From positions 9,640 to 73,639 of the forward strand of contig JABHFS010000154.1 of NCBI GenBank assembly GCA_018672475.1: a stretch of 64,000 nt of DNA, read 5' to 3'. Shown one piece after another: positions 3,024 through 31,831 of the stretch; within the stretch, counting starts at the first letter, position 1; every line of letters starts with the position of its first letter. The stretch is from Gemmatimonadota bacterium (lineage in GTDB: Bacteria; Latescibacterota; UBA2968; UBA8231). Both the position numbers and the translations under genes were made by a program. The notes under the pieces are model-generated. The model was not told the origin of the DNA. It searched no databases and saw only the letters and a program-made list of their open reading frames with translations.

Positions 3024-3024
3024 T

Positions 3025-8286: not shown

Positions 8287-8574
8287 GGGAGGCTCGTGGT
8301 TGATGGTCTTGGTTGGCGGTGTGCCCGCTTGCTCATACCGCGCCCTGCGGGCGCCTCGCCGACCATCCCTAGTCGGCTCCGAGGGGCGGTCTAATCCGAT
8401 TTTGCAATCCTGCAAGATCGGGACAACAAACCGCTGCGGAGGCATGCCTCCAACCAGCCCTGGTAGCTGGCGAGTTTAACTGCTGGACCATATTAGTACG
8501 GAATTGCGAGGGGGGTGTCCAGCAAGTGGAATGAATTGTTGTGGGGTGGAGGTGCTTTGGCTACTATATCCGGC

Positions 8575-9846: not shown

Positions 9847-9910
9847 GTGCGCATTTTCCCTTTGAAGGATGCGTAATAATCCTTGTTGTTCGTCCCCCCG
9901 TCCCTTAGTT

Positions 9911-10000
9911 ATGTTGTTGAAAAAAATACTACTCCCACTATTTATAACCCTTGCAGTCAGTGCCTTCTGTCCTTTATATATACTGCTATTATGTCATTGA
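9911..10000 (+). repeat. partial duplication of the substrate-binding protein 2 start / signal-peptide coding segment (29-codon uORF MLLKKILLPLFITLAVSAFCPLYILLLCH)
   Basis: Nt 9911-9950 and 9991-10030 align at about 32/40 identity (atgttgttgaaaaaaatactact... vs atgtcattgaaaaaaatactact...). Confidence 0.5.
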
Positions 10001-11259
10001 AAAAAATACTACTTCCATTGCTTATAATCCTGGCTGGTTGCGGCGGGGAGGATGGGCCCCGTCCCAATGAGCCGACTACGGTCGTGCTGTGGGAATTTGG
10101 TGGGGTGCCGGGTTTGCGTGATTGGGTGCAACAAGCCGTCGAGGAGTTTAACACCAGTCGCTCCGATATCCAGATCGAATTGGAGTTTCGCGATTGGGCG
10201 ACGCAGCGCGAGAGCTTAATCAGCACGACGATCGTCGGCGATGGGCCGGATGTGGTGCGGGTGCACCACAAATACTCGGTGGAATTCGGCGAGTTGGGCG
10301 GTCTGTATCCGCTGGATAATTTCCCCGATTTCCCCCAGGTCAAAGAGCGCGTGCTCGACAATGTCTGGGAACTGGTCGAATACGAAGGCAAGCACTATGG
10401 CCTGCCGGTGACGATGCTGCCCTTCGTGCTGGCGGTCAATACCGATATTATGGCCAAGAAGGGGCTCGACACGCCTCAGACCTGGGAAGAGATGCTGGCA
10501 TTGGGGCCGGAGTTTGCCGGCTCGGGCGTCGATCTTTTTACTATGCCGGGTGGGGTTAATCTGGATACGGCCTATCGCTTCTTGCCACTTTTGTACAAGG
10601 CCGGTGGGCGGGTCTTTAACGAGGATTGGACCAAGGCGGCGTTTAATGGTCCAGCCGGATTGGCGGCGTTGGAGTTTTTGATGGCGATGAAGAACCAGGG
10701 CTATATGCCTCCGGGCAGTGCGGCCTATGCCTTTGATGAGAATGCGGCGCATTGGGCCACGGGTCGCGCGGCGTTCTCTATTGAAGGGCCGTGGTGGCAG
10801 GATATCGTGCACGGCAATTACGAATTCGATCTGAAGAATTTGGCGTTGGCGCAGGTGCCGCGGCCGGCCGAGCACATCGGCCCGCACGAGTCACGGACAT
10901 TGCTCGATGTGATTATGGTGTCGATCACCGGCTATAGCAAGGTGCCCAATGAGGCTTGGGAGGTGATTAAGGCATTGGATCTGGACCACGAGGTTTGGCG
11001 TAACCCCAATCCAACTATGGGCGGGATCCCGACGCTGAAGGCAGCCTATGCCGAAGGCGTGCAATCCGATTATATCAATTTGGATCAGTTGGCCGAGGCC
11101 GGCGCCAATGGGTTGGGTTGGCCCGGACATCCCGCCGTGACCCAAGTCCAGCGCTATATCGCCGACGCGGTCAATATGGCGCTGACCGGCACGATGAGTC
11201 CCAAGGAGGCGCTGGACTTTGCCGCCGAAGAAGTAAACGAGGTTCTACTTGACTACTAG
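9991..11259 (+). CDS. ABC transporter substrate-binding protein (CUT1 sugar family), lipoprotein; tandem paralog
   Basis: Lipobox ILAGCGG. By eye it is about 65-70% identical to the upstream substrate-binding protein over long stretches (HHxYSVEFGELGGLY..LDNF.DFP.VKERVLDN). Confidence 0.8.
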   Translation: MSLKKILLPLLIILAGCGGEDGPRPNEPTTVVLWEFGGVPGLRDWVQQAVEEFNTSRSDIQIELEFRDWATQRESLISTTIVGDGPDVVRVHHKYSVEFGELGGLYPLDNFPDFPQVKERVLDNVWELVEYEGKHYGLPVTMLPFVLAVNTDIMAKKGLDTPQTWEEMLALGPEFAGSGVDLFTMPGGVNLDTAYRFLPLLYKAGGRVFNEDWTKAAFNGPAGLAALEFLMAMKNQGYMPPGSAAYAFDENAAHWATGRAAFSIEGPWWQDIVHGNYEFDLKNLALAQVPRPAEHIGPHESRTLLDVIMVSITGYSKVPNEAWEVIKALDLDHEVWRNPNPTMGGIPTLKAAYAEGVQSDYINLDQLAEAGANGLGWPGHPAVTQVQRYIADAVNMALTGTMSPKEALDFAAEEVNEVLLDY

Positions 11260-17427: not shown

Positions 17428-18084
17428 ATGAACGACGGGCAAGAGGGCACAGTGCGGGTATTGCTCAAAGACCAGGCCTATGAGAATCTGAAAAAGCTCA
17501 TTCTCGAAGAGGTGTTCGCGCCGGGGACAGTTCTCTCCGAGCGGCAATTGGCGGCGCGGTTGGATATGAGCAAGACCCCGATCCTCTCGGCGTTAGAGCG
17601 GCTGGAGACGGAGGGGTTTGTCGCGGTGTCGCCGGAGCAGGGGATCGTAGTAAGGGAACCGTCGTTGCGCGAGATCGTTGACCTCTTCGATATTCGCATC
17701 GCGTTGGAGGTTTTTGTAGTGCAGTCGATCGCCGGGCGACTGAACTCCGAGCAGATTAGTCGGCTACAGGCCAACTTGCAGCCGCAAGCCCGGGCCGCGC
17801 AAGCTAAGGATTTGGTTGAGTGTACGCGTTTGGACGCGGATTTTCATTTGCTGCTCTGCGAGTTTTTAGATAACCGAGAGATTCTGCAGGTGATGCGCGG
17901 GTTGCGCGACAAACTGTATCTGGTGGTGCTGGGGTTGGTGCGGTCGGATACGGGGCGGCTGATGATCAGCTATGGGGAACATGAGGCGATTGTCGAGGCG
18001 GTGGTGAAGGGGCAAGGTGAGGAGGCGGCTAGGCGGTCGAAGGAGCATTTGGAATATGGTAAGAACTTTTTAGTAACGCGGTAG
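17428..18084 (+). CDS. GntR-family transcriptional regulator (FadR/FCD subfamily)
   Basis: N-terminal wHTH (LSERQLAARLDMSKTPILSALERLETEGFV) plus a C-terminal FCD-like helical domain. Confidence 0.85.
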   Translation: MNDGQEGTVRVLLKDQAYENLKKLILEEVFAPGTVLSERQLAARLDMSKTPILSALERLETEGFVAVSPEQGIVVREPSLREIVDLFDIRIALEVFVVQSIAGRLNSEQISRLQANLQPQARAAQAKDLVECTRLDADFHLLLCEFLDNREILQVMRGLRDKLYLVVLGLVRSDTGRLMISYGEHEAIVEAVVKGQGEEAARRSKEHLEYGKNFLVTR

Positions 18085-18196
18085 CTAATGGTCGCAGGTC
18101 CTTGCGGGAAACTTCCTGTGTGGGCGAACATTTTGCAGCTATGTATTCGACTTACGACGGAGATATCAGTAAGATATTTCGCAAAAAGGAGGGCAT

Positions 18197-20110
18197 ATGC
18201 CGTCTAAAAAAGTACTCTGCCATGGCGTGGAGGATATGGCGGAGCGGATACAGTTACGGGTGGGGGCGTTGTCGATGATTTTTGAACCGCAATTGGGCTT
18301 TTTGCGCTATATGACTTATGGGGGCAAGGAGATTTTGCGCGGGGTGTATGCGGCGGTGCGTGATCGCAACTGGGGTACGATCGAGCCGCGGGTGAGCATG
18401 GTGGAGTTGCAAGAAGAGGACGAGGGGTTTGTGCTTTCGTTTGATGTTGAGTGCATAAGTGGGGATGTGGATTTTTTCTGGCGGGGGAGAATCGTCGGTG
18501 AGCCGGGGCGGGTGGAGTTTTCGCTGGATGGGATTGCACGAAAGAGTTTTTCCCGTAATCGACTGGGTTTTTCCGTGTTGCATCCGGCAGAGTGCGCAGG
18601 GCTCGCGTGCCGGGTGGGAAAGGTGGACGGCACGGTAGAGGAGGGTGTGTTTCCGCTATTGATATCACCGCACCAGCCCTTTATGGACATGAAGAGCATC
18701 GCGCACGAGGTCGACGGAGTACGGAGCGAGATCACTTTCGCTGGGGATATCTTTGAGATGGAGGACCAGCGCAATTGGACCGATGCTTCGTATAAGACCT
18801 ATTGTACGCCGCTGGCATTGCCCTTTCCGGTCGATGTGGCAGAAGGCGAGGTGATCCAGCAGACGATTGTGATTGAGGTCGAGGGGACAACGGATATCGT
18901 TGATGAGGATCGGGGGTGCGTATTATTGGCGGTGGAGTCGATTGGCGGGGAGAACTTGATGCATATCGGCTTGGGTCTCGCTAGTGACGCGGGGGAGTTG
19001 AGCGAGGTCGAGTTGGCGCGATTACGCGCGTTGAATTTGTCGCATCTGCGTGTGGATTTGCACTTGGCCGAGCAGGGGTGGCAGACTGTGCTGGCCCGTG
19101 CATGGCGGGAAGCCGAGGCTTTGGCCATTGGGCTTGAAGTAGCGATTTTTGTCAGCGATGCGGCGGCGAGGCAACTGGCGGAGCTGGCCGGGGCATTGGA
19201 TGGGGTGGATATTTGTCGAATACTGGTTTTTCACGAAGATGAGAAATCCACGACGGCGGGGTGGGTGAACTTGGCGCGGGAGTATTTGAGCGGGTTGCAG
19301 GTGCCCATCGGCGCGGGCAGTAACGACTATTTTACCGAACTCAACCGCGAGCGGCCGCCGGTTGAGGTGTTGGATTTGGTCAGTTATTCGCTCAACCCGC
19401 AGGTGCACGCCTTTGATGACGTTTCACTGGCTGAAACGCTTATGATGCAGATGGTAGTAGCGCATAGCGCGCGACAGTTTTGCGGCGATTTGCCGCTTTG
19501 CGTGTCGCCTGTGACGCTATTACCGCGTTTTAACCCCAATGTCACCGGCGCGGAGCCCGAGCCGGGTCCAGGCGATTTACCGCCGCAAGTTGACGTGCGG
19601 CAGATGTCGCTTTTTGGCGCGGGGTGGACGGCGCTCAGCCTGAAGTATTTGGCTTTGCGGGGGGTGGCGAGCAGCACTTATTACGAGACGAGCGGTTGGC
19701 GCGGGGTAATGGAACGCGCGGAAGGCTCGGCGCTGCCGGAGGTTTTTCAGTCGATCGCCGGGGCCGTCTTTCCGCTCTACCACGTATTGGCCGATGTGGG
19801 CGAATATGCGGGTGGCAAGGTCTTTCCGGTGCATACTAGTGACCTGTTGCGGGTCGACGGAGTGGCGTTGGTCAAGGGCGAGCGGCGGCGGCTTTTGCTG
19901 GTCAATCTGACGGGGGAGACCGTGGCGGTACAGATCTCGGGTTGGACTGGGGCGGCGTATGTGGTGCAGCTCGACGAACGCAATGTCGAGCGGGCGATGA
20001 GCGAGCCCGAGGTGTTTCGCGCGGAGCAGGGGGTGCGGTATGTGCGAGTCGAGTCGCTTGATCTGTTGCCCTATGCGGTGACGCGTGTCGATTTGGAGGT
20101 GGATTCGTGA
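18197..20110 (+). CDS. conserved-looking protein of unknown function (637 aa)
   Basis: Long ORF with coding-like composition in the same orientation as the flanking operon. No family was recognised by eye; the central part has TIM-barrel-like alternation. Confidence 0.6.
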   Translation: MPSKKVLCHGVEDMAERIQLRVGALSMIFEPQLGFLRYMTYGGKEILRGVYAAVRDRNWGTIEPRVSMVELQEEDEGFVLSFDVECISGDVDFFWRGRIVGEPGRVEFSLDGIARKSFSRNRLGFSVLHPAECAGLACRVGKVDGTVEEGVFPLLISPHQPFMDMKSIAHEVDGVRSEITFAGDIFEMEDQRNWTDASYKTYCTPLALPFPVDVAEGEVIQQTIVIEVEGTTDIVDEDRGCVLLAVESIGGENLMHIGLGLASDAGELSEVELARLRALNLSHLRVDLHLAEQGWQTVLARAWREAEALAIGLEVAIFVSDAAARQLAELAGALDGVDICRILVFHEDEKSTTAGWVNLAREYLSGLQVPIGAGSNDYFTELNRERPPVEVLDLVSYSLNPQVHAFDDVSLAETLMMQMVVAHSARQFCGDLPLCVSPVTLLPRFNPNVTGAEPEPGPGDLPPQVDVRQMSLFGAGWTALSLKYLALRGVASSTYYETSGWRGVMERAEGSALPEVFQSIAGAVFPLYHVLADVGEYAGGKVFPVHTSDLLRVDGVALVKGERRRLLLVNLTGETVAVQISGWTGAAYVVQLDERNVERAMSEPEVFRAEQGVRYVRVESLDLLPYAVTRVDLEVDS

Positions 20111-20408
20111 GTGGTCTGAGAAGTGGGTTGGTCGGTTGCGCTGGGCGCCGATTATGAGTTGACGGTGGTGCGGGGAGCCCGAGGTGCACAAGCAGCGAGT
20201 ACCGCCGCTCGAGCGGGCTTGGAGCGAAGCGCCGGGCACGGCGATACAGAGATAGCGTGGTCGCTGACCCAACAGCATTGCGTCGACGCGTTGCGGGCGG
20301 GAGAGTCGCCCGAGACTTCTGCAGCCGATAACTTGCGCACGTTAGAATGGGTCTTCGGCGCCTATGTATCCGCGGCAACGGGTCTGCCTTATCGTATGGG
20401 AGAATCAA

Positions 20409-21662
20409 ATGGCGACTGAACGCGTCATAGCGACGTATCTGATCGAAACGCCGTATTCGCTACAAGAAGCGGCAGAGGTATTGGCCGGTGAGCAGTCGAG
20501 TGGGACTTTTGTTTCAGTGCCGGGGGAGACCGATGAATTGCGGGAAAGATTCCGGGCGAGATTGGAATCGCTGCAAGAATTAGAGCCGGTGGCCGAGCCG
20601 AGTTTGCCCGGGGGAAAAGTGCCGGAGGGTGTTGCCCAATATCGCCGGGCGCGGATTGAGGTTTCCTTTTCCCTGGAGAATATGGGGGTTAACTTGCCGA
20701 CGCTTGTCGCCACGGTGGCGGGCAATCTTTTTGAGCTGCGCGAGTTTTCCGGGCTCAAGTTATTGGATATAGAACTACCGCAGGATTTTGTTGCCCGCTA
20801 TCCGGGTCCACAATTCGGCATCGCGGGCACCAGGCAATTGGCCGGGGTGGAAGCACGACCGTTGATTGGTACTATCGTCAAACCGAGTGTGGGGCTGAGT
20901 CCGGCGCAGACGGCTGAGTTGGCCGGGGAGTTGGCCGGGGCGGGCATCGATTTTATTAAAGACGACGAATTGATGGCCGACCCGCCGCACTCTCCACTCA
21001 AAGAGCGGGTAGAGGCGGTGATGAAGGTCCTCAATAAGCACGCCGATAAGACGGGAAAGAAGGTGATGTATGCCTTTAATATCAGCGATTCGCTGGAGGC
21101 AATGTATCGCCACCACGATATCGTGCAGGCGGCGAGTGGCACCTGCGTGATGGTCAGTTTGAACAGTGTGGGGTTGGCGGGGGTCGAGGCTTTGCGTGGC
21201 CGGGCGAGTTTGCCGATCCACGGGCACCGTAATGGTTGGGGCATGTTGAACCGGCACCCGGCGTTGGGTATTGAGTTTACGGCCTATCAGAAGCTGTGGC
21301 GTCTGGCCGGTGTCGACCATCTGCACGTCAATGGTCTGCAGAACAAATTCTCCGAATCCGACGAGTCGGTAGTGCGTTCGATCAAGGCCTGTCTCGAACC
21401 CTTCTTGGGGGGGTATCATCTGATGCCGGTGATCTCCTCGGGACAATGGGGTGGCCAGGCGCCGGAGACCTATCAATTGACCAAGACGGTCGATCTGATG
21501 TATCTGGCCGGTGGCGGCATGATGGCGCACCCCGGGGGGCCGGCGGCGGGTTGTGCGGCGATCCGCCAGGCGTGGGCGGCGGCGGTTAAGGGGGTCGAAC
21601 TCGCCGACTATGCCCGCGAACACGAAGAGCTACGGCTCTCAATTGAGAAATTTGGAGGCTGA
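20409..21662 (+). CDS. RuBisCO-like protein (form IV RLP, RuBisCO large-subunit homolog)
   Basis: GTIVKPSVGLS (RuBisCO KPKLGLS), DFIKDDE (K201/D203/E204), IHGHRNGW (H294/R295), DHLHVNGLQNKF (K334 loop 6) and LAGGGMMAHPGG (C-terminal phosphate site). RBS gggaga 7 nt upstream. No rbcS, prk or cbb genes nearby. Confidence 0.85.
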   Translation: MATERVIATYLIETPYSLQEAAEVLAGEQSSGTFVSVPGETDELRERFRARLESLQELEPVAEPSLPGGKVPEGVAQYRRARIEVSFSLENMGVNLPTLVATVAGNLFELREFSGLKLLDIELPQDFVARYPGPQFGIAGTRQLAGVEARPLIGTIVKPSVGLSPAQTAELAGELAGAGIDFIKDDELMADPPHSPLKERVEAVMKVLNKHADKTGKKVMYAFNISDSLEAMYRHHDIVQAASGTCVMVSLNSVGLAGVEALRGRASLPIHGHRNGWGMLNRHPALGIEFTAYQKLWRLAGVDHLHVNGLQNKFSESDESVVRSIKACLEPFLGGYHLMPVISSGQWGGQAPETYQLTKTVDLMYLAGGGMMAHPGGPAAGCAAIRQAWAAAVKGVELADYAREHEELRLSIEKFGG

Positions 21663-22597
21663 TGAACTATCGCAAGGCAGTGCGCGCGGGGATCGAGTTG
21701 TCGCAGGTGGGTTTGGGCTGTAACCGTTTGGGAGAAGAAGGCAAGGACGATCGGCATTGGATCGATTTGGTACAACGCGCAGTCGAATTGCGGATTAATA
21801 TTTTTGATACGGCGCAAGGGTATGGCGGCGGTCGCAGCGAGCAGATCTTGGGCCAGGCCCTGGGCAATCGCGACGACGTGTATGTGGCGAGCAAGATCGG
21901 CCATAGCGAGGGGGGCTTTACGCCGGAAGAAATGGCGCGGAAAATCGAGATGAGCCTGACCCGGCTCCAACGGGATCGTGTCGATATACTGCAATTGCAC
22001 AGCCCGAGCCGCGAGGAACTCGAGCGTTATGATTGGGCCGAGGGCATGCAGCGGTTGCAGGATGCGGGCAAGGTCGGTTTTAAGGCGATGGCGTTGGATT
22101 CAGTCGAGTCGGCGGTGTGGCTGATCCGGCAGGATGTCGTCGATTTTATGCAGATCACCTATAACATTTTTGATATCGAGGCCGAGCACGAGCTCTTTGC
22201 CTTGGCCGAAGAAAAGGGAGTGGCGTTGCTGTGTCGTTTGCCGCTCGCGCAGGGAGTGCTGACGGGTAAATTTTCGCCCGGGCGGGATATGGGCGATCAT
22301 CGCGCGCGCTTTTCGGGGCCGCGGTTGGCCGCCAGGGTTGAAATGGCCGAGACGCTCAGACCATTGGCTGAGGCCTATCCCGGCGGGATGACGCGGTTGG
22401 CACACGATTTCAGCTTAGGGCCTGTCGCGACGACCTGTATTATCCCCGGCGCGCGGGATGTGGTGCAATTGGAGGAGAATACGGCGGCGGGCGAGGGCAC
22501 GGGTGTCGATGCGGCCACACGGGCCGAGGTCGAGCAATTGCGCCGGACTTGGGGTGAGTGGGCGGGCGGGTATTGGTTCCCGCAACAGCCGGCGTAA
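21662..22597 (+). CDS. aldo/keto reductase
   Basis: AKR signature (IFDTAQGYGGGRSEQILGQAL) and the start overlaps the RLP stop codon. Confidence 0.85.
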   Translation: MNYRKAVRAGIELSQVGLGCNRLGEEGKDDRHWIDLVQRAVELRINIFDTAQGYGGGRSEQILGQALGNRDDVYVASKIGHSEGGFTPEEMARKIEMSLTRLQRDRVDILQLHSPSREELERYDWAEGMQRLQDAGKVGFKAMALDSVESAVWLIRQDVVDFMQITYNIFDIEAEHELFALAEEKGVALLCRLPLAQGVLTGKFSPGRDMGDHRARFSGPRLAARVEMAETLRPLAEAYPGGMTRLAHDFSLGPVATTCIIPGARDVVQLEENTAAGEGTGVDAATRAEVEQLRRTWGEWAGGYWFPQQPA

Positions 22598-23964
22598 TGG
22601 ATCTGCGGCTCGGTTTTTACGGTGATGATTTTACCGGCTCGACCGATGCGTTGGAGGCGCTAAGCACGGCGGGTTTGCGCACGGTGCTTTTTATTGAGCC
22701 GCCGACTGCGGAACAGTTGGCGCGTTTTCCGGGTTTAGAGGCGGTAGGAGTAGCGGGGCGCACGCGTTCGTTGGCGACGGGGGATATTTCGGCTGAACTC
22801 AGGCCGGTTTTTGCGCGTTTCGCCGAGTTGGGCTGTCCGCTGGTTCACTACAAAACCTGTTCGACCTTTGATTCTTCGCCCGAGGTAGGCAGTATCGGGC
22901 GGGCTATTGATGTGGGGCAGGAGATTTTTGCCTCGCCATTTGTGCCACTGGTCGTGGGCGCACCGGTGTTGCAGCGCTTTTGTGTCTTCGGCAATCTCTT
23001 TGCGCGCTCGGGGCTCGATAGCGAGATCTTTCGCCTGGACCGGCACCCGACGATGCGCCAGCATCCGGTTACGCCGATGCACGAAGCGGATCTGCGCTTG
23101 CACCTTGGGCGGCAGACCGAGCGGCAGATCGGGCTTTTTGATGTGCAGGCGCTTGCTTTATCGCAACGCGAAAGGGAGGTGGCACTCGACGCTCTATTGG
23201 CCGAAGGCGCGGAGATCGTGCTATTCGATGTATTGACCGATGAGCACTTGCAGCGCATTGGTCAATTGCTTTCCACGCGGGCGGAGCCCGGTAAGACCTT
23301 ATTCGTCGCCGGGTCGTCGGGGATCGAATATGCGTTGTGCCAATATTGGGGGGTGGGTAATTCGCAACTCCCGGCCGGCGGCGCAGCGGTGGATCATGCG
23401 CTGGTGGTGTCGGGCAGTTGTTCGCCGGTGACCGAGCGACAGATCGCGCGGGCGCTGACCAAGGGCTTTGCCGGTGTAGCGGCCGATACGGCACTTTTGG
23501 TCCAAGGCGGACCGGTAGCGGAGGCCGAGACGGCGCGCTTGGTGGTGGAGAGTTTAAAGGCGCTCGAAGCGGGAAAAAGTCCCTTGGTGCATACGGCTCT
23601 GGGGCCTGCAGACGAACGAATCGGTGCGACGGCGGCGAAACTTCAGGCGATGGGCTATGATCTCTTAGATCTCAAGTTGAAAAGCGGCGAGATCTTCGGT
23701 CGGGTGCTTGGCAATATAGTGCAGACGATTTTTGCGGGCACGGGGCTTCGTCGCGCGTGTGTAGCCGGCGGTGACACTTCGACCTATGCGGCGCGGCAAT
23801 TGCGCATCGAAGCTCTGGAGATGGTCGGGCCGATGGCGCCGGGCTCGCCGCTGTGTCGGGTTTCCGCAGCGAACGGAGTAATCGACGGAGCTGAAATCAC
23901 GTTTAAAGGTGGCCAGGTGGGGCGCGACGACTTTTTTACTTCTGTATTGAAAGGAAAACCATGA
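22597..23964 (+). CDS. four-carbon acid-sugar kinase family protein (DUF1537 N-domain + DUF2090 C-domain; OtnK/OiaK-like)
   Basis: N-terminal LGFYGDDFTGSTDALEAL motif typical of DUF1537 kinases. The start is coupled to the AKR stop by a taATGg overlap. Confidence 0.8.
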   Translation: MDLRLGFYGDDFTGSTDALEALSTAGLRTVLFIEPPTAEQLARFPGLEAVGVAGRTRSLATGDISAELRPVFARFAELGCPLVHYKTCSTFDSSPEVGSIGRAIDVGQEIFASPFVPLVVGAPVLQRFCVFGNLFARSGLDSEIFRLDRHPTMRQHPVTPMHEADLRLHLGRQTERQIGLFDVQALALSQREREVALDALLAEGAEIVLFDVLTDEHLQRIGQLLSTRAEPGKTLFVAGSSGIEYALCQYWGVGNSQLPAGGAAVDHALVVSGSCSPVTERQIARALTKGFAGVAADTALLVQGGPVAEAETARLVVESLKALEAGKSPLVHTALGPADERIGATAAKLQAMGYDLLDLKLKSGEIFGRVLGNIVQTIFAGTGLRRACVAGGDTSTYAARQLRIEALEMVGPMAPGSPLCRVSAANGVIDGAEITFKGGQVGRDDFFTSVLKGKP

Positions 23965-24803
23965 CAGATAAAACAACGGTAGCTATTTTCGGCGCGGCCG
24001 GCAGTATGGGGACGCGTTCTTCGAATGCGCTCAAAAACGATTTGGTCTATGATGTGCTCTATGTGGAGGCTGGCAAGGAGGGAATGGCTCGGTTGCGCGA
24101 GCGGGGTGTGGAGCCGACAGAGCAGGCGGTGGCGCTCAAACAGGCTGAAGTGATCGTGCTGGCGGTGCCCGACGCGCTGATCGCTACTGTCGCTGCCGAG
24201 ATTGTGCCCGAGATGCAGAGCGGGGCGATGCTGATTGGGCTTGATCCGGCTGCACCACATGCTGGGCGTCTGCCCGAGCGCCAGGACGTGAGCTATTTCT
24301 TTTCACACCCTTCGCACCCGCCGATCTTCAACGACGAGACGGAAGCCGAGGCGCGCAGGGATTTTTTTGGCGGTGTGGCGAAGCAGTCGATCGTCAGCGC
24401 CCTATTGCAGGGGCCGGAAGAAGATTATGCCAAGGGCGAGGTGATCGCCAGCAAGCTCTTCGGGCCGATCCTGCGTTCGCACCGGATCAGCATCGAGCAG
24501 ATGGCGATCTTGGAGCCAGCGCTTTCCGAGACGGTGACGGCGACCTGTTTGACGGTGATCCGCGAGGCGCTGGACGAGGCGGTCAAGAGGGGTGTGCCGG
24601 CCGAGGCGGCGCGGGATTTCCTTTTGGGCCACCTCAACGTCGAGCTGGCGATTCTCTTCGACGAGATCGACTGGGAGTTGTCGGACGGGGCGAAGGAGGC
24701 GGTCGCCGACGCGATGCCGGTTATTTTCCAGCCGGATTGGAAGAAGGTCTTTGATGCCGAGCAGCTACTGGTGTCTACACGCAAGATCACTGAGATCAAA
24801 TAG
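23961..24803 (+). CDS. NAD(P)-binding dehydrogenase (6-phosphogluconate/3-hydroxyisobutyrate dehydrogenase-like Rossmann fold)
   Basis: VAIFGAAGSMG glycine-rich motif followed by AEVIVLAVPD. ATGA overlap with the kinase gene. The C-terminal half is divergent. Confidence 0.55.
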   Translation: MTDKTTVAIFGAAGSMGTRSSNALKNDLVYDVLYVEAGKEGMARLRERGVEPTEQAVALKQAEVIVLAVPDALIATVAAEIVPEMQSGAMLIGLDPAAPHAGRLPERQDVSYFFSHPSHPPIFNDETEAEARRDFFGGVAKQSIVSALLQGPEEDYAKGEVIASKLFGPILRSHRISIEQMAILEPALSETVTATCLTVIREALDEAVKRGVPAEAARDFLLGHLNVELAILFDEIDWELSDGAKEAVADAMPVIFQPDWKKVFDAEQLLVSTRKITEIK

Positions 24804-24811
24804 GCGAGGTT

Positions 24812-25909
24812 ATGAAAGAGACGATATTGCAGTTCGGTGGTGGCAAGTTCCTGCGCTCCTTTGCTGATTTCTTCGTGCACGAGGCCAACCAAGCCGGGCA
24901 GGAGGTCGGACAGGTCGTGGTGGTGCAATCGACCGATAGTCCACGCGCGCAGTGGCTCAACGCGCAGCAGGGGAAATACCAGGTTTTGGTGCGTGGGTTG
25001 GTGGAAGGCGGACAGGTCGATGAGGCGCGGGAGATCGCTAGTATCAGCCGGGCGTTGGTCGCGAGCCAGCAATGGCCCGAAGTGCTGCAGGTGGCGAGAT
25101 CGGCCGATTTGCGGTGGATCGTCTCGAATGTGACTGAGGCGGGTTATGGTCTCGATGCGGGAGATGTGATCGAGGCGCCGCGTAGCTTTCCTGCCAAGCT
25201 AACGGCGGTGCTCAAGGCGCGTTTTGACGCGGATTTGCCGGGGTTGCCGATTTTGCCCTGCGAATTGATTGCGGAGAATGGCGAGCGATTATTGGAATTA
25301 GTGTTGCAACAGGTGGCGCATTGGAAACTAGAAGATAAATTCGTCGATTGGCTGGGTGGCCAATGTATCTGGCCGAACGCGTTGGTCGACCGCATTGTCA
25401 GCTCGCCGCCCGACGATCATCCGCTGCTGGCGGCGGATCCGTTGCTGGCAGTGGCTGAGCCCTTTGCGCTGTGGGCGATTGAGGAATTCGAAGGTGTAGA
25501 CCTCTTTGAGCATCCGGCGATAAAACTCGTCGACGATGTAGAACCCTATGCGCTGCGCAAGGTGCGGATTTTGAATGGCGCGCATCAGGCATTGGTCTGC
25601 CGCGCGTTAAATCGCTTCGCGACGGTGCGCGAGGCGCTGGCCGACGCGGAGACCGAGGCTTGGTTGCAACAGTTGCTGGCCGCAGAGATCGTGCCGGTGG
25701 TTGATGCGCGTGTCGAGGGGGCTTCGGCTTTTGCCCAGGAAACGATGCAGCGTTTCGCCAATCCTTTCCTCGACCACAAGCTGAGCGATATCGCCGTCTA
25801 TCACGAGCAGAAGATCGAGACGCGGTTGATGCCGACTTATCGCGAATACAAGCAGCACTTTGGTCAAGAGCCGGTGTTACTGAGCGAGATTCTCAAGCCC
25901 TTTTTGTAG
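24812..25909 (+). CDS. mannitol dehydrogenase family oxidoreductase (altronate/tagaturonate reductase UxaB-like), shorter than UxaB
   Basis: Blocks align with E. coli UxaB: ILQFGGGKFLRSF, RWIVSNVTEAG, ILPCELIAENGERLLELVL, NALVDRIV, KVRILNGAHQALV. Confidence 0.75.
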   Translation: MKETILQFGGGKFLRSFADFFVHEANQAGQEVGQVVVVQSTDSPRAQWLNAQQGKYQVLVRGLVEGGQVDEAREIASISRALVASQQWPEVLQVARSADLRWIVSNVTEAGYGLDAGDVIEAPRSFPAKLTAVLKARFDADLPGLPILPCELIAENGERLLELVLQQVAHWKLEDKFVDWLGGQCIWPNALVDRIVSSPPDDHPLLAADPLLAVAEPFALWAIEEFEGVDLFEHPAIKLVDDVEPYALRKVRILNGAHQALVCRALNRFATVREALADAETEAWLQQLLAAEIVPVVDARVEGASAFAQETMQRFANPFLDHKLSDIAVYHEQKIETRLMPTYREYKQHFGQEPVLLSEILKPFL

Positions 25910-26447: not shown

Positions 26448-27575
26448 TTAGACGACCTGTTCTAAGACCTCGGTGAAATTGGCGACTGTGCGCTCGACGT
26501 TTTGCAGTTTGTCGAGGCCGAAGAGCCCGAGACGAAAGGTCTGGAAACCTTCGGGCTCGTCGCACTGCAGCGGCACGCCGGCGGCGATCTGCAGGCCGTT
26601 GGCGGCAAATTTCTTGCCCGTTTGTATCTCGCCGTCTTCGGTATAACAGACGACGACGCCCGGGGCCTGAAAACCTTCGGCAGCGACGCTCTTGACGCCT
26701 TTGTCGGTGAGCGCTGCGCGGATCTTATCCCCGAGCTCTTGCTGTTGTTGGCGTACGGTGTCGAAGCCTATGGCTTCGATTTCGCCCATCACCTTGTGAA
26801 AGGTGGCCAATGCGTCGGTGGGCATGGTCGCGTGGTAGGCGTGGCCGCCATTCTCGTAGGCCTCCATGATCGATAGCCATTTACCGAGGTCACAGGCGAA
26901 GCTGCTGCTGGTGGTGCTGTTAATTTTTTCGCGCGCGGCGGCATTGAGCATGACTAGCCCGCAACAGGGCGAGCCGCTCCAGCCCTTTTGCGGCGCGCTG
27001 ATCAAGATGTCGACGCCGGAAGCTTCCATGTCGACCCATAGCGCGCCCGAGGCGATGCAGTCGAGCACGAACAAACCACCCGCAGCGTGCACGGCGTCAG
27101 CTACCTGGCGGATATAGTCGTCGGGCAGGATGATGCCAGCGGAGGTTTCGACGTGCGGGGCGAAGACCATATCCGGCTTTTCGCTTTGGATCGTCTGCAC
27201 AACCTCCTCGATGGGGGCGGGGGCGAAGGCCGCCTGCGGGCCGTCTTCTACGGGACGGGCTTTCAAGACGGTGGTGCTCGCGGGAATGTTGCCCATATCG
27301 AGGATCTGGCTCCAGCGGAAACTGAAAAAACCATTGCGGATGACCAGGCATTTTTTATCGTTGGCGAACTGGCGGGCGACCGCTTCCATGCCGTAGGTGC
27401 CGCTGCCGGGCACGATGGCGACGGCTTTGGCGTTGTAGACCTTTTTGAGGGTGGCGGAAATATCCCGCATCGACCCTTGGAACGATTGCGACATATGGTT
27501 GAGCGCGCGGTCGGTGAAGACCACGGAGTATTCTAACAGTCCATCGGGGTCGACGTCGGGTAATAAGCCTGGCAT
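26448..27575 (-). CDS. class V aminotransferase (serine-pyruvate / alanine-glyoxylate aminotransferase family)
   Basis: PLP fold-type I with a QK lysine motif (ILISAPQKGWSGSPCCGLV), as in SGAT/AGXT enzymes. Confidence 0.85.
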   Translation of the reverse strand: MPGLLPDVDPDGLLEYSVVFTDRALNHMSQSFQGSMRDISATLKKVYNAKAVAIVPGSGTYGMEAVARQFANDKKCLVIRNGFFSFRWSQILDMGNIPASTTVLKARPVEDGPQAAFAPAPIEEVVQTIQSEKPDMVFAPHVETSAGIILPDDYIRQVADAVHAAGGLFVLDCIASGALWVDMEASGVDILISAPQKGWSGSPCCGLVMLNAAAREKINSTTSSSFACDLGKWLSIMEAYENGGHAYHATMPTDALATFHKVMGEIEAIGFDTVRQQQQELGDKIRAALTDKGVKSVAAEGFQAPGVVVCYTEDGEIQTGKKFAANGLQIAAGVPLQCDEPEGFQTFRLGLFGLDKLQNVERTVANFTEVLEQVV

Positions 27576-27616
27576 GTTAGCCTCTTTCTAATAGTTGTAT
27601 TGGTATGATAAGCATA

Positions 27617-27650
27617 GAATGTCGGTGTTTATGAATCCGGTGCAACGCCT
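27617..27650. repeat. 34-bp direct repeat, copy 1 (in the aminotransferase / TPR divergent intergenic region)
   Basis: gaatgtcggtgtttatgaatccggtgcaacgcct. It shares a 14-mer (ccggtgcaacgcct), a 9-mer (cggtgttta) and a 5-mer in register with copy 2. Confidence 0.7.
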
Positions 27651-27767
27651 ATTATTGAGTAATATATCGCTTTTATTGTTCTTTATAAATGGTATATGTT
27701 TTTCACCCGGGAATATTTGGTCGAGTTCGCTGTGACGCTTATCCGTCCATAGCGTATACTTTCATTT

Positions 27768-30593
27768 ATGGTATCTGCATCACTCGACAAAAACGATTGC
27801 TTGCGCCTGCGCGAGACGCGCCCGGTCTGGGCGATCTATGCTCTCGTACTGGCTTTAGTCGCCGCGTTCTTCTTTGCCGACTTGCGCGACTTCCTGCAAC
27901 GGACTGATGATGCCGATGTTTTTCGCGCGCACGAGGCCATCAGAGGCGACTTCTCATTTTTTCTATCGCCCGAAAAACCCATGGCCTCGGGGCGCATCGT
28001 CGACGAGTTCGCGCTCTATCTGGTCTATTTGTTCTGTGGCAACGATCCGGGTGCTTTTCATCTGTTGGCCGCAATTGTACACGCGATGGCCAGCTTTGCC
28101 CTGGCTTTTGCCTTTCGGCGTTTGGGCGCGGATATGGCAACCAGTCTCGTCGGCGGTCTGCTCTTTTTATGCAATATCGCGCATGTCGAAACGGTGCAGT
28201 GGATCTCGGCGCTTGAATATCCCTTTGCCGTGCTCAATATCTCCTGTACGCTGTGTGTATACGCCAGCTATATCGAGGGTCGTCGCCGTGCGCTATTGCT
28301 ATTTTTTTATGGTGCTGTGCTGCTCTGCGCATTGACGCACTTCGTCTCGGTGCTGGTCCTGCCGTTGTGCTTGTTGTGGGGCTGGTGGCGTGGTGGGGCG
28401 ATAGTGGAAAGGGCCAAGGAATTGGCGCCGCTTTTGCTGTTGTTGCCGCCGGTGCTCTTTTTCGTCTTCGGTCTCACCGGTAGCCATACGACGACTTCGG
28501 TGGCATTGCATGCTTTACTGAATCAGTCGGTAGTGCTCTTGTTCGCCGATAGCGCAGGTTCCCTTTTATGGTTGTTGGGGCGTCTGCTGTCTTTGGCGCA
28601 CTGGGTCTCTGTGGTGCCGGGCGAGCGGGCGATGGTGGAGTTGTGGTTGGGTGGAGCCGTGTTGTTGCTTTTGCTGTGGGGCATATGGAAGGGGCGGACG
28701 GAGGTGCAGATATGGGGGCTGTGGACCTTGTTGTTTACGGTGCCCTTTGTGCCGGCCGTGGCCGTACACGCTGGTATCGCACGCTACGTCTATCTGGCCA
28801 CAGCCGGCTCGTCCTTTCTCATCGCCTGGGCATTGGTGCACGCCAGTAGCCGGCTGGGGCGGCGTGGTCTGCCTATCGGAGGAGTTGTTTTACTAGGAGT
28901 TGTCGCCTCGAGCTATGTCGCGGAGGATCGCATTGCTAACCTGACGCGATACCATACTGGGCGTTTTTTTGTTGTGGACGCGGATCCGCGGGTCGGGATG
29001 TCGCTTATTGACCAGGCACTGGAAATCGACCGCAGTCTGATCCCGGTGGCCGAAGCCCATTTATATTTGCTTGACGGCGCACTCCGGGCGGGGGTCGATT
29101 ATGAGGAGATCTTGCGGCGCGGCTTGCACGAATTACCGGAAGATCAGGATCTCCGTTTGGCGGCGCAACTGAGCGCGCAATTTGCGGGCATGGCAGAGAG
29201 GGATGACTTGGCTCGACTGCAGGCAGAGTATGCTACGGGTGAAAAGGTCTTTGCGCATCGGGTCGCTATTTTGAGCCAGCATTTTGGCAACTACTACACC
29301 GAGCGCGGTGAGTTCGCTCATGCCGTGCAGGCGTATCGCACCTCTTTGCATTATAGCATATCTGCACCGACTAATGCGAATACGGCCATGCGCTTGATCG
29401 AGAGCCAGCGCCGAAATGGCCGTTATGAAGAAGCTGTCGCCACCGTTGAAAAAGTCTGGATGCTGTACCAGGACGCCCCGGATTTTCTCTATTTAGCCGC
29501 ATTGTGTCTGCTGGAAGCAGGGGATCTCGACAAGGCGCAAAACGCCATTGAGCGCGGTTTGAGCCTGACGCCCACGGCCAATTTCTATGCGTTGGAGGGC
29601 GAAATATGGGCGCAGCGCGGTTTGTATGAGCGAGCCGCCGAGGCCTATCGCCACGCCATTTCCGTCGTTCCGCAAACCCCCGATCCCTTTTTGCTACTGG
29701 CGCGGCTGCACCGTGAACAAGGTGATATGGCGAGCGCTGTCGAGGTGTTGGAAAGAGCCATCGGCGTCTATCCGGATGCGGCGTTGGTATGGTATAATCT
29801 CGGCAATATCCGCCATGCGCTCGGCCGCAACGAGGAGGCTGCAATGGCGTATGGACACGCGGCGCGCTTGAACCCGGATCACGCCCAGGCCCACGCCAAT
29901 CTGGGCTTGCTGCTGGCCGGCTTGGGGCGCGGGGACGAAGCGGAAGCGGCGTTGCGTCGCGCGATTGCCGCACAACCCGAAAGCCCCGTATTCCACCATG
30001 AGTTGGGCATGTTAGTCCAGGAGCGCGGCGATAGGCAAATGGCGCTCGCCGAGTTGGAACAGGCGGTGCACTTGCAATCGCAAGATTTCGCGACTTACAC
30101 AGTACTGGCCCGCCTCTACCTAGATGCAAATCAGCACGAAAAGGCGCTGGCCGCCTATGTGCATTTTGTGCACGGTGATTGGAGGGCGGTTGCCGGCAGC
30201 GACTACGTGCGCGCGGGTATCGATTTGCAGGCATTGGGCGCAGGCGACCTGGCCGCCGAGGCTTACCGCCATGCGCTGGAGCGTGATAGCGGCGATGCGG
30301 CGGCGCGTATAAATCTGGGTTGGTTGTCGTATGAGCGCGGGGATTATGACAAGGCGATAGAGCAATACGAACATGTCTTGGCGAGGGAGGAAAATGCTAC
30401 GGCACAATTTAATTTGGGCCTGGCCCTCCTGGCGCGAGGTGACCTGGGCAGGGCGCGTGCGGCCTACGAGGAAGGGGTGGAGCTCTTCGGCGCACAGGAA
30501 GCGGTGCGCATTGGCGCGGTAGAAGATTTGCGCGCACTCACCGGGCACAATACAGAGGCGGCGGTGTTGTTGCGTCAACATTGGCCTCGCTGA
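27768..30593 (+). CDS. integral membrane protein with a polytopic N-terminal domain and a C-terminal tetratricopeptide-repeat region
   Basis: About 11 hydrophobic helices in the first 400 aa, then multiple 34-aa TPR units (AxxYRxAL...NLG motifs). Confidence 0.75.
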   Translation: MVSASLDKNDCLRLRETRPVWAIYALVLALVAAFFFADLRDFLQRTDDADVFRAHEAIRGDFSFFLSPEKPMASGRIVDEFALYLVYLFCGNDPGAFHLLAAIVHAMASFALAFAFRRLGADMATSLVGGLLFLCNIAHVETVQWISALEYPFAVLNISCTLCVYASYIEGRRRALLLFFYGAVLLCALTHFVSVLVLPLCLLWGWWRGGAIVERAKELAPLLLLLPPVLFFVFGLTGSHTTTSVALHALLNQSVVLLFADSAGSLLWLLGRLLSLAHWVSVVPGERAMVELWLGGAVLLLLLWGIWKGRTEVQIWGLWTLLFTVPFVPAVAVHAGIARYVYLATAGSSFLIAWALVHASSRLGRRGLPIGGVVLLGVVASSYVAEDRIANLTRYHTGRFFVVDADPRVGMSLIDQALEIDRSLIPVAEAHLYLLDGALRAGVDYEEILRRGLHELPEDQDLRLAAQLSAQFAGMAERDDLARLQAEYATGEKVFAHRVAILSQHFGNYYTERGEFAHAVQAYRTSLHYSISAPTNANTAMRLIESQRRNGRYEEAVATVEKVWMLYQDAPDFLYLAALCLLEAGDLDKAQNAIERGLSLTPTANFYALEGEIWAQRGLYERAAEAYRHAISVVPQTPDPFLLLARLHREQGDMASAVEVLERAIGVYPDAALVWYNLGNIRHALGRNEEAAMAYGHAARLNPDHAQAHANLGLLLAGLGRGDEAEAALRRAIAAQPESPVFHHELGMLVQERGDRQMALAELEQAVHLQSQDFATYTVLARLYLDANQHEKALAAYVHFVHGDWRAVAGSDYVRAGIDLQALGAGDLAAEAYRHALERDSGDAAARINLGWLSYERGDYDKAIEQYEHVLAREENATAQFNLGLALLARGDLGRARAAYEEGVELFGAQEAVRIGAVEDLRALTGHNTEAAVLLRQHWPR

Positions 30594-30600
30594 GCGTTGG

Positions 30601-30634
30601 GAATGCCGGTGTTTACGCGCCCGGTGCAACGCCT
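30601..30634. repeat. 34-bp direct repeat, copy 2 (immediately 3' of the TPR gene, overlapping the 3' end of the convergent hydrolase gene)
   Basis: gaatgccggtgtttacgcgcccggtgcaacgcct. Confidence 0.7.
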
Positions 30635-31206
30635 GATTTGCGGATCTGCGCCAAGCCCTCTTCGAGCCAGCCGGTGTTCCAGTGGTGTTTTATTTTTGCT
30701 CGAGGCAGAAAGATATGCTCAAGGCCGGTTTTGCACAGGGCTTGCGAGAATAGGTGCATTTCCGCGTGGAAGCTTTCGCCTGAAATCAATATCAGCGAAT
30801 GCGTCGGCGGCATAGCGGCTTGGAATGCCGTTATGGTATGCAGTGGCAGGTCCTGTTGCCATGCTGCGTCGTTTGCGTAGAATGGTTCGGTGCCCCACGG
30901 GGGCAACTGGTAGCGGACGACCGGGGAGTCGAAGATGATGGTGCCGGCGACGCGTTCGGGCATCGCCCGGGCGATATGCCAGGCGCCGAGACCCGACTTG
31001 CTGAAACCGACCAAGACGATCTCGCTGAGTCCGAGGGCTTCAATTTGCGCGATCGTCTCTTTGCAGACGGTCTCGTTATACCAGACCATTTTCGGAAAAC
31101 GGATCTGGTGGACTACGGCGTCAGGATAGGCCTCGATGTGCATCGGGGCCGTACCGTAGGTGGTGTCGTCCGGCTCTGTCGCCGGCAGGATAACGAGATT
31201 AGGCAT
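30613..31206 (-). CDS. alpha/beta-hydrolase-like protein
   Basis: GFSKSG (G-x-S-x-G nucleophile elbow) in a 197-aa protein. Confidence 0.5.
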   Translation of the reverse strand: MPNLVILPATEPDDTTYGTAPMHIEAYPDAVVHQIRFPKMVWYNETVCKETIAQIEALGLSEIVLVGFSKSGLGAWHIARAMPERVAGTIIFDSPVVRYQLPPWGTEPFYANDAAWQQDLPLHTITAFQAAMPPTHSLILISGESFHAEMHLFSQALCKTGLEHIFLPRAKIKHHWNTGWLEEGLAQIRKSGVAPGA

Positions 31207-31519
31207 AGGGCTTCTTCGTTGGTGTTTATCAGGTCCGGATGGACTGCGAGAGATTGCAGTGCTTTACTTGCTGTCATGGTCATGGCCATGGCTGTATGGA
31301 TTCACTGGCATGGGTGTGGAAAACTAATGCGGTGCTCAGGTGTCGCCTGGCTTTATTTTGCAGGGCGAAAAACAAGGGCCTTGAGGAAAAACAGCGGGTA
31401 GACGAGTGGGAACACATTGGGCAACCACCAGAAAAAGTCAAAATCCAGGCGGATGGCCTAAACCGACAGCGCCTGCAGGCCAGAACGGGACGTCAACACC
31501 AGCGAAACCGAGCCCAATT

Positions 31520-31831
31520 CTATGCATCGGTCATCGTCGCGCCGCCGCGCTTGCTCAGGGTCGGCGGTATGAGCATCTTGCGCCGCTCGCCGACCCGCAT
31601 GCCGACGATCCTTCGTCGACCCCGGCGATGACCTATTGGCCGCCGCGCGTGCTGTAGAGTGCACCCGTCGGTAAAAGTCGCACCCTCGTGGATAGACACG
31701 TGCTGGCTTGCGCGGGCGGCGGGTCCGGACCCCTTGGTGATTACAGTATAGGAGAGCCCGGACTCTGTGGAAAAGGTCTTGCCCGAACCCACGCAGCCGG
31801 CGACGAGTAATAGCAAGGCCAACGCCCTCAT
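31520..31831 (-). pseudogene. FKBP-type peptidyl-prolyl isomerase lipoprotein, apparently frameshifted
   Basis: Lipoprotein signal MRALALLLLVAGC and an FKBP start (GLSYTVITKGSGPAARASQHVSIHEGATFTDG). Later FKBP motifs occur in other frames (VIAGVDEG in +2; IVGMRVGERRKMLIPP in +1) with an in-frame TAG between them. Confidence 0.4.

Follow-up and report, generated by a model that had tools for sequence, protein, structure and literature searches.

A 34-bp imperfect direct repeat as the probable junctions of a TPR gene insertion at the end of an esterase-like gene in marine Latescibacterota

Why should a gene encoding a large membrane protein with TPR repeats be bracketed, almost to the nucleotide, by two similar 34-bp sequences in the same orientation? 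An earlier note on this DNA had offered two answers, namely that the gene was acquired by recombination, the repeats marking its ends, or that both ends carry a shared regulator or RNA-structure motif. Here we describe the repeat pair in the window (the whole 64-kb stretch of DNA that was analysed) and compare the locus with its counterparts in relatives. All comparison sequences are metagenome assemblies, and both states of the site, with and without the TPR gene, recur in independent assemblies. The features of the locus are collected in Table 1.

Table 1. Features of the TPR locus, in positions of the 64-kb window
Feature	Positions	Strand	Size or sequence	Reading
Class-V aminotransferase gene	26448-27575	-	375 aa	Probable original downstream neighbour of the esterase gene
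Aminotransferase leader	27576-27616	-	41 nt, Shine-Dalgarno-like AGAAAGAGG	Probable original spacer after the esterase stop region
Repeat copy 1	27617-27650	-	GAATGTCGGTGTTTATGAATCCGGTGCAACGCCT	Putative relic: esterase 3' end, duplicated and displaced
Inserted segment (putative)	27651-30600	+	2,950 nt (2,984 nt with one repeat copy)	Comprises the AT-rich promoter region, the TPR gene and a further 7 nt
AT-rich upstream region	27651-27767		117 nt, 34% GC	Probably came in with the TPR gene
TPR cargo gene	27768-30593	+	941 aa	Predicted N-terminal polytopic membrane domain, then ~12 TPR repeats
Repeat copy 2	30601-30634	-	GAATGCCGGTGTTTACGCGCCCGGTGCAACGCCT	Working 3' end of the esterase-like gene
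Esterase-like alpha/beta-hydrolase gene	30613-31206	-	197 aa	Probable target gene, end duplicated

The repeat pair and the esterase gene end

The direct repeat described in the earlier note is real and lies where it had been placed, although alignment of the two copies gives 29 identical positions of 34 rather than 28. The exact 14-mer, the 9-mer and GAATG were all recovered in register in both copies, and copy 2 does begin 7 nt past the stop codon of the TPR gene (30591-30593), as claimed; between the end of copy 1 and the TPR start codon (ATG, 27768) lie 117 nt. The likeness between the copies ends abruptly at both edges of the 34 nt. No other gene-end duplication of the same kind was found within the window, in which the remaining strong repeats are paralogous coding sequences.

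What the earlier note had missed is that copy 2 is not intergenic, since it belongs to a convergent gene. It spans the last 7 codons, the stop and 12 nt past the stop of the minus-strand esterase-like open reading frame; read on that strand, it gives the codons G-V-A-P-G-A followed by the stop TAA at 30613-30615, contiguous with the rest of the frame. Copy 1 reads GVAPDS-TAA in the same register, is still attached to the 41-nt aminotransferase leader and would have lost its translation. Copy 1 is best read as a displaced duplicate of the esterase gene end, an origin that would fully account for the similarity between the two copies. The tail concerned is a variable one, as the esterase C terminus beyond ...HHWNSGW(I/L)EEGL differs in sequence and length among homologues.

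Sequences of both kinds occur in other genomes that carry the TPR gene. The equivalent of copy 2 in L013, L019, L100 and L106 is of the same type (GCGCG/CCGCG ... ACCGGCATT), and L019/L103, as well as the more distant L015/L104/L099, have a homologous relic whose TAA is in register and which adjoins the same AT-rich stretch and TPR gene. The stop-distal half of copy 1 (TAAACACCGACATTC) is identical to the single copy found in relatives that lack the gene. One base is diagnostic, the sequence being ACCG-A-CATTC in all of these empty sites and all relics and ACCG-G-CATT in all working copies of filled genomes.

Empty and filled sites in relatives

The earlier note had suggested comparing related genomes for presence or absence of the TPR gene between single-copy repeats, and this comparison reveals unoccupied sites in three relative lineages, where the TPR gene is missing and the repeat occurs once. 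In L102, L014 and L010/L011/L012, the esterase gene is followed by the aminotransferase gene at a distance of 53 to 69 nt, with one 34-mer. When the window was aligned to L014 by BLAST, the segments 26485-27650 and 30601-31218 overlapped on that sequence at 2072-2105, which is exactly the 34 nt. Because both flanks of the window align onto one single copy in relatives, the segment 27651-30600 appears to be inserted DNA flanked on both sides by its duplicated target. The 41-nt leader also follows the single repeat copy in empty sites (38/41 identical positions in L102 and 35/41 in L014). These empty sites lend support to the first answer of the earlier note, acquisition of the TPR gene by recombination, with the repeats as its junctions. 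The anatomy of insertion and duplication, the unoccupied sites and the polymorphism among close relatives are all documented in the assemblies.

Among the filled sites, the window, L019 and L015 have the same junctions. In L015, the TPR gene is accompanied by five further genes and the esterase gene is absent; the extra genes are not bounded by a second repeat copy, and given these five genes the original insert may have been larger. L102, although empty, has 93-97% DNA identity to the window in the flanking genes and nests among filled genomes (the window, L019 and L013). Occupied, decaying and empty states coexist in ocean metagenomes, and mosaic tracts beside the site indicate that homologous recombination between lineages is active there. 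Distant esterase homologues have no adjoining aminotransferase gene and are hence uninformative for polarity.

The genes around the locus form a sugar-acid (apionate-type) catabolic cluster, while TPR homologues in other Latescibacterota occur in tandem, upstream of genes for transketolase-N, transketolase-C, GT2 and a methyltransferase; judged by this gene context against the surrounding cluster, the TPR cargo is probably foreign to its neighbourhood. A 58%-identical homologue in L110 sits at an unrelated locus. Foreign composition was not found in the insert, the TPR open reading frame having 58.5% GC compared with 57% across the window; AT richness is confined to the 117 nt of the promoter region. 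This region is kept in L019 (87%) and L015 (69%) and contains a promoter-like match toward the TPR gene (27732-27760, plus strand) and another toward the aminotransferase gene (27689-27661, minus strand), both of which are consensus matches only and no commoner than in shuffles. The membrane domain of the TPR protein comprises ~7-9 hydrophobic segments (aa 17-386) and gave no Pfam or PDB sequence match; a structure search with the protein was dominated by its TPR half.

With respect to known mobile elements, no terminal inverted repeats were detected, the ends of the insert (ATTATTGAGTAAT... and ...GCTGAGCGTTGG) having been read directly, and no integrase or transposase occurs among the long open reading frames of the window or in the relatives' gene tables at the locus. 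Target-site duplications of transposable elements likewise flank an insertion and are single copy at the empty site; here, unlike in those elements, the duplication of 34 bp is much longer than usual, terminal inverted repeats and transposase are missing and one locus only is affected, and a transposon or insertion sequence was rejected on these grounds. Integration linked to a tRNA was rejected as well, there being no nearby tRNA gene (those of the window lie at 52-53 kb only). In a dif/XerCD-type site, inverted arms would be expected; the 34-mer has two direct CGGTG half-motifs and no inverted arms and derives from the esterase gene, so this candidate was also set aside.

It is very improbable, in our view, that a single regulator binds both copies, or that they form a common RNA element, with selection at either end of the TPR gene keeping them alike. 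In favour of such a role, the blocks TTGC(A/C)C, TAA and ACCG(A/G)CATT are invariant in every lineage, in relic and working copy alike, and the stop-distal block, lying ~45 nt upstream of the aminotransferase start, may belong to the control region of that gene. However, copy 2 consists of esterase coding sequence plus 12 nt and corresponds to a single copy in relatives, the relics of L019 and L015 are decaying in their esterase-proximal half, and the motif, as read from the sequence, is not palindromic. Both strands of both copies folded no better than shuffles (z from +0.2 to +1.4 for three folds and -0.15 for the minus strand of copy 1), an Rfam search returned no match at E<=1, and there was no terminator-like site at either copy. 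With no fold, Rfam or terminator signal, and with the similarity explained by duplication of the esterase end, little is left of the shared motif proposed earlier. A sigma-70-type promoter within the repeat (TTGCAC...) was rejected for its poor hexamer fit and was not flagged in the promoter scan. A dispersed REP-like repeat or a chance match has a next to negligible probability. Chance would be favoured by the frequency of exact 14-mer direct repeats, about nine of which arise per shuffled 64-kb window (51 in the real one), so that the figure of below ~1e-3 put forward in the earlier note holds only for pre-specified positions. The full match of 29/34 is significant: the best 34-nt match in any shuffle was 25/34, and a degenerate 34-nt pattern had no match in 100 shuffles. 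As in REP/BIME repeats, the sequence is short (~34 nt) and stands beside gene ends, but unlike them it is not palindromic, forms no stable hairpin, is partly coding in copy 2 and is not dispersed. The window contains two copies only, and a scan of 241 million metagenome records gave eight matches, five of them loci at this site and three (L101, L105 and L107, metagenome/viral matches) one unrelated sequence, which is alike only at the specified pattern bases and which we ascribe to chance. The repeat thus did not turn out to be the frequent genome-wide REP-like element that the earlier note had considered as a counter-explanation. What decides the matter is homology rather than statistics, as both copies align to one orthologous segment that is single copy in relatives.

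Entry and loss of the TPR segment

We regard the repeats as very probably the junctions of a gene insertion, with the TPR segment entering at the esterase end, most likely by reciprocal recombination; the type of recombination, and the enzyme that would perform it, are what we infer. In the ancestral order, the esterase-like gene, a spacer of ~53 nt and the aminotransferase gene would all have lain on one strand. A 2.95-kb segment with the membrane/TPR gene and its own AT-rich promoter region would then have entered, inverted, right where the esterase gene ends, and this entry would have duplicated the last 22 nt of the gene and the 12 nt past its stop. Copy 2, adjoining the esterase gene, would have become the real gene end, and copy 1 would have been left behind on the aminotransferase leader, displaced and untranslated. 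The most likely route would be reciprocal recombination at a short site, in which a DNA circle bearing both the TPR gene and its own copy of that site recombines with the chromosome; be it att-like or of the short-homology "Campbell" type, such recombination would automatically leave one copy on each side. Short-homology recombination could account for the first insertion only if the incoming DNA already carried an esterase end. That the copies differ at five positions could reflect a diverged incoming site or, equally, later drift in an unconstrained protein tail. A circular (attP-type) junction, in which the TPR end is joined to the AT-rich end via one 34-mer, was seen in 0/8 metagenome loci; assembled contigs provide a weak test for such a form.

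Precise loss of the gene, with one hybrid copy left in place, would follow from the same reaction run backwards or from template switching between the copies during replication; the repeat would then be both a scar of entry and a substrate for clean loss. RecA-independent deletion is known to act on direct repeats of <200 bp that lie no more than a few kb apart (PMC7145654). The single copy of L102 combines the esterase-side flank of the window, the shared 14-mer and a copy-1-type remainder (32/34), followed by the copy-1-side spacer; it is one hybrid copy, the sides of which match the respective flanks of a filled relative, as is looked for in precise repeat-mediated deletion. This pattern fits a crossover within the 14-mer and would be equally expected if L102 had never been occupied. 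In the window, copy 1 agrees with its own copy 2 at 14 of 14 esterase-proximal positions, including the lineage-specific G5 and G14, whereas the relics of L019 and L015 differ at these positions and are more alike to each other (29/34) than their flanks are. The nested empty site of L102 and the shared lineage-specific bases would fit recombination between copies, that is, precise loss, re-entry or conversion. Either L102 may have lost the gene or the window may have regained it, and any direction given to these events is presumptive.

Entry by reciprocal recombination has to be weighed against other routes to the same anatomy. We hold it possible, though on the unlikely side, that a one-off illegitimate insertion took place, in which a staggered double-strand break of ~34 nt at the esterase end captured a stray TPR fragment and fill-in repair created a target-site duplication, with vertical descent, drift of the copies and occasional repeat-mediated deletion or allele exchange via flanking homology thereafter and no site-specific system involved. 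No recombinase, terminal repeats or circular junction was found, the junctions shared by the window, L019 and L015 are what a single old event would leave, an unconstrained esterase tail lets the copies diverge fast, and the inter-lineage homologous recombination active beside the site could spread either allele. Yet enzyme-made target duplications are typically 2-15 bp, which a stagger of 34 nt far exceeds; the 14/14 lineage-specific match of the window relic to its own working copy is not predicted by pure vertical descent, nor is the likeness of the L019 and L015 relics, above that of their flanks, predicted without interaction between copies. Somewhat doubtful to us is a second route, by which the repeats would be the attL and attR sites left by an integrative element in decay, its integrase lost but its movement still driven by a tyrosine or serine integrase encoded elsewhere. 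Islands made by integrases typically have direct repeats that take in and restore the target gene's 3' end, and this route is further favoured by the identical 14-nt block between diverged arms, the polymorphic state of the site among near-identical genomes and hints of a young or reset relic in the window. It is opposed by the lack of any integrase in the window or in the relatives' versions of the locus, by an element consisting of a single gene, by the absence of tandem accretion and of a second cargo type bounded by the same repeat (the extra genes of L015 come without a second copy) and by the failure to recover an attP junction. Elements that retain attL and attR but not integration genes have been described, as cis-mobilizable elements among streptococcal islands (PMC5704250). 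We consider improbable the stronger proposition that the TPR gene and its promoter form a recombinase-less single-gene cassette repeatedly entering and leaving one 34-bp site in marine Latescibacterota by means of a recombinase encoded elsewhere, toward which the window relic, young-looking compared with those of L019 and L015, the nested empty site and the identical 14-nt core with diverged arms give hints.

Known systems and meaning

The closest likeness is to genomic islands that have integrated at the 3' end of a tRNA or protein gene, among them CIMEs, remnants without an integrase (PMC5704250). There, as here, the foreign DNA lies between two imperfect direct repeats, each some tens of bp long, and the target gene depends on one of them for its functional end (copy 2 in the esterase gene); the unoccupied site (attB) is single copy in relatives (L102, L014 and L010/L011/L012) and no recombination gene lies inside the element. 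Unlike those islands, the present insert has one cargo gene (3 kb) and no tandem accretion, no excised circle was found in assembled contigs, and the recombinase that would be expected is lacking among the long open reading frames of the window and the relatives' tables at the locus. The likeness to attL/attR islands is thus put forward as a resemblance, which does not establish membership. RecA-independent template switching or slippage deletion (PMC7145654) likewise concerns repeats of <200 bp, 3 kb apart as in this locus, and L102 would be its expected product; this process would account for loss only and not for the origin of the duplication.

To conclude, the locus is a clean but ordinary insertion scar, a known, textbook-type kind of feature that calls for no new mechanism. 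It provides a base-pair-resolved example of a single accessory gene gained and cleanly lost within a conserved catabolic cluster of an uncultured marine phylum. It also illustrates that what looks like a short "intergenic" repeat can have arisen by duplication of the end of an adjacent gene, which is worth checking before regulatory motifs are proposed. To our knowledge, Latescibacterota is a phylum without characterised mobile elements; the cassette possibility, if true, would mean an att-type gene-cassette system in this phylum, and the discovery of a dedicated recombinase would make the site a first handle on site-specific gene mobility in Latescibacterota.

Anatomy of the repeat and of the genes it brackets

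Both copies of the 34-bp imperfect direct repeat are present where the earlier note had placed them, with 29 of 34 positions identical rather than the 28 it counted, and their likeness stops sharply at both ends of the 34 nt. No further copy was found in the 64-kb window with mismatches allowed. The exact 14-mer on which the significance of the repeat had been based is weak evidence by itself, since block-shuffled windows hold about 9 exact 14-mer pairs and the real window 51, but the full match stands: the best 34-nt match in shuffles was 25/34, so that 29/34 was never neared, a degenerate-pattern search matched 0 of 100 shuffles, and all other repeat pairs of this quality in the window are paralogous coding sequence. 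The five mismatches all lie within the 20 nt distal to the perfectly shared 14-mer.

Copy 2 had been overlooked as part of a gene; it is not intergenic, and on the minus strand (GGC GTT GCA CCG GGC GCG TAA, then ACACCGGCATTC) it comprises the last codons and stop of the esterase gene plus 12 further nt. Copy 1, on the same strand (GGC GTT GCA CCG GAT TCA TAA, then ACACCGACATTC), is a second gene end with its stop codon in the register of copy 2; no gene lies upstream of it, and it is followed by a 41-nt leader and the start of the aminotransferase gene. We refer to copy 1 as the relic and to copy 2 as the working copy. The target duplication is about 34 nt long, its left edge being uncertain by about 3 nt.

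Coordinates of the repeat, its bracketed genes and other features (window positions unless a contig is named)
Feature	Position	Strand	Remarks
Repeat copy 1	27617-27650		GAATGTCGGTGTTTATGAATCCGGTGCAACGCCT
Repeat copy 2	30601-30634		GAATGCCGGTGTTTACGCGCCCGGTGCAACGCCT
Unique insert	27651-30600		2,950 nt: 117 nt upstream sequence (34% GC), TPR ORF, 7 nt
Class-V aminotransferase gene	26448-27575	minus	
941-aa TPR protein gene	27768-30593	plus	
Esterase-like alpha/beta hydrolase gene	30613-31206	minus	197 aa
Extra segment beside esterase	31217-31825		about 609 nt
Small lipoprotein-like ORF	31520-31831	minus	MRALALLLLVAGC...
Sugar-acid catabolic cluster	17428-25909		NCBIfam scores below curated cut-offs
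ApnL-like lactonase	18197-20110		NCBIfam score below curated cut-off
OiaX-like RuBisCO-like protein	20364-21662		NCBIfam score below curated cut-off
Tandem SBP_bac_1 genes	8515-9846, 9883-11259		followed by two ABC permease genes
46-nt direct repeat	9909-9954, 9989-10034		83% identical, 80 nt apart
63-nt coding repeat	57275-57424, 58486-58647		four copies, 62-86% identical, ...TTCGATGACTTCTTCATCTTCGCCGATAACTTTGGC
ORFs holding 63-nt repeat	55745-57451, 57634-58683		adjacent
TPR-paralogue cluster	L108 1312-14850		

Empty and filled sites in relatives

The esterase protein is found on many marine metagenome contigs (labelled L, all metagenome assemblies), and the nine nearest by this protein (L001-L009) are identical to the window at both repeat copies. 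Comparison of relatives, which the earlier note had proposed, revealed an unoccupied site without the TPR gene in three lineages. In L010/L011/L012 (esterase 73% identical) and L014 (71%), the esterase and aminotransferase genes share a strand and are separated by 69 and 53 nt, respectively. L102 has this empty arrangement too; it is a close relative, whose DNA identity to the window is 93% for the esterase, 94% for the aminotransferase and 97% for a mannitol-dehydrogenase-like gene. In BLAST alignments, window positions 26485-27650 correspond to L014 3237-2072 and 30601-31218 to L014 2105-1490, so that both flanks overlap on exactly the 34 nt of the repeat, the hallmark of an insertion that duplicated its target.

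The site is filled in L013 (Tara Oceans), L100, L106, L019/L103 and the more distant L015/L104/L099 (aminotransferase DNA 81% identical), and all filled sites that reach the aminotransferase side have a homologous relic (AGCCATTGCACCAAAACCTTAAATACCGACATTC in L019, GCCCATTGCACTAAAAGCATAAATACCGACATTC in L015) joined to the same AT-rich segment. A diagnostic base reads ACCG-A-CATTC in all empty sites and all relics and ACCG-G-CATT in the working copy of every filled genome. Insertion with target duplication, polymorphic for presence and absence, is established at this locus, and the acquisition by recombination suggested earlier was right.

A second variable spot adjoins the insertion site: the extra segment that separates the esterase start from the stop codon of a GFO/IDH/MocA-type oxidoreductase gene and contains the small lipoprotein-like ORF, whose ATG overlaps that stop codon. 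The segment is absent in L013, L019 and L010, degenerate in L014 and present in L102, there accompanied by some 710 additional nt; direct repeats flanking it were not found.

The cargo gene and its surroundings

Some 7 to 9 hydrophobic segments fall within residues 1-390 of the TPR protein, and its TPR repeats span residues 500 to 920, approximately; its membrane half matched no Pfam family or PDB sequence. In L108 (Latescibacterota), four tandem TPR paralogues immediately precede genes for transketolase-N, transketolase-C, GT2 and a methyltransferase, probably the native cluster of the cargo, and in L015 (3078-10384) the TPR gene is followed by the same four types plus an epimerase gene, the esterase gene being missing. 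This gene order places the origin of the cargo in a glycan-type cluster from within the phylum; the original insert may have comprised that entire cluster or no more than the TPR gene. The gene now sits within the apionate-like sugar-acid cluster, to which it is foreign, and its GC content matches the host. In some strains it is decaying: in L019/L103 an in-frame internal deletion of 1,998 nt removes residues 101-766 (window 28069-30064; L019 7574-7575) and has 2-nt microhomology at its junction, and in L019 and L106 (about 758-760) a single base added behind window position 30506 (GCGGTG[A/G]CGC) shifts the last 28 codons. Because of these lesions and its absence from L102, the gene looks dispensable.

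The sugar-acid cluster resembles D-apionate pathways and also includes a GntR/FCD regulator, an aldo-keto reductase, dehydrogenases and a protein of the four-carbon acid sugar kinase type. At the protein level, the aminotransferase shares 71-78% identity with proteins from Pseudomonas, Burkholderia, SAR324, Desulfobacterales and others, and other Latescibacterota (L051, L073) score about 74%. These values may reflect either unusually strong conservation across phyla or lateral transfer; the aminotransferase scored below the cut-off of PhnW-type models. Elsewhere in the window, the paralogous extracellular solute-binding protein genes are 74-76% identical in DNA over several hundred nt, and in the 46-nt repeat the start and signal-peptide codons of the second of these genes occur twice; the upstream copy of this repeat opens a 29-codon ORF ending over the real start codon, and it represents either a gene 5' end that was duplicated or an upstream ORF. 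The 63-nt repeat encodes a protein module that recurs at the C termini of its two ORFs.

Proposed origin of the duplication and removal of the gene

A regulator or RNA-structure motif shared by both ends, as the earlier note had alternatively suggested, is rejected: the copies fold no better than shuffles, no terminator-like sites were found at them, Rfam gave no match, and the relics of L019 and L015 are decaying in their esterase-proximal half. The repeat does contain invariant blocks, TTGC(A/C)C, TAA and ACCG(A/G)CATT; the stop-distal block already preceded the aminotransferase gene when the site was still empty and may be part of the control region of that gene, not a shared function of the two copies. 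Nor is the repeat a frequent REP-like element, a family ruled out by copy number: there are two in 64 kb, and a metagenome scan hit this locus and one unrelated sequence. A degenerate 29-nt pattern also matched L101 1338-1366, L105 4053-4081 and L107 3993-4021, one unrelated sequence on three contigs, one of them in a viral collection; it fits the specified bases only (4/13 free positions agree), tblastn of these contigs found none of the proteins of the repeat locus, and we take it as a chance match.

We favor reciprocal recombination at the 34-nt site, att-like or by short homology, through which the TPR DNA would enter and whose reverse reaction would take the gene out, for several reasons: (i) 34 nt far exceeds the duplications made by transposases; (ii) all five mismatches are distal to the shared 14-mer; (iii) in gene trees the empty-site L102 nests among filled genomes, and its single copy is of hybrid type (32/34), with the window esterase flank and 14-mer joined to a copy-1-type remainder and copy-1-side spacer (38/41); and (iv) the window relic shares lineage-specific bases, G5 (of GTT) and G14, with its own working copy. 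This sharing, together with C3, A5, A13, A14 and T24 common to the L019 and L015 relics (29/34 alike, with flanks only 71-82%), suggests either that gene conversion took place between the copies or that the window lineage saw a more recent re-integration, the positions being few and not decisive. No integrase, transposase or terminal inverted repeat was found among long window ORFs, locus gene tables of relatives and insert ends, and no tRNA gene at the site; the metagenome-scan matches to the repeat included no circular-junction contig, assembled contigs being a weak test. RecA-independent deletion is known to act on short direct repeats separated by a few kilobases (PMC7145654), and islands keeping attL and attR after integrase loss have been described as cis-mobilizable elements (PMC5704250).

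The feature is a clean and well-documented case of a known kind: the insertion of a gene, flanked by two copies of a duplicated target to which the end of a neighboring gene belongs, with probable recombination between the copies. Mosaic homologous recombination between lineages is also active right beside the site: some 900 nt of the L102 aminotransferase gene (about 2800-3700) form a tract with 97-98.5% identity to L019 and 90-95% to the window, both the esterase side and what lies beyond resemble the window, and trees of neighboring genes disagree accordingly. Filled and empty alleles may therefore spread by flanking recombination as well.
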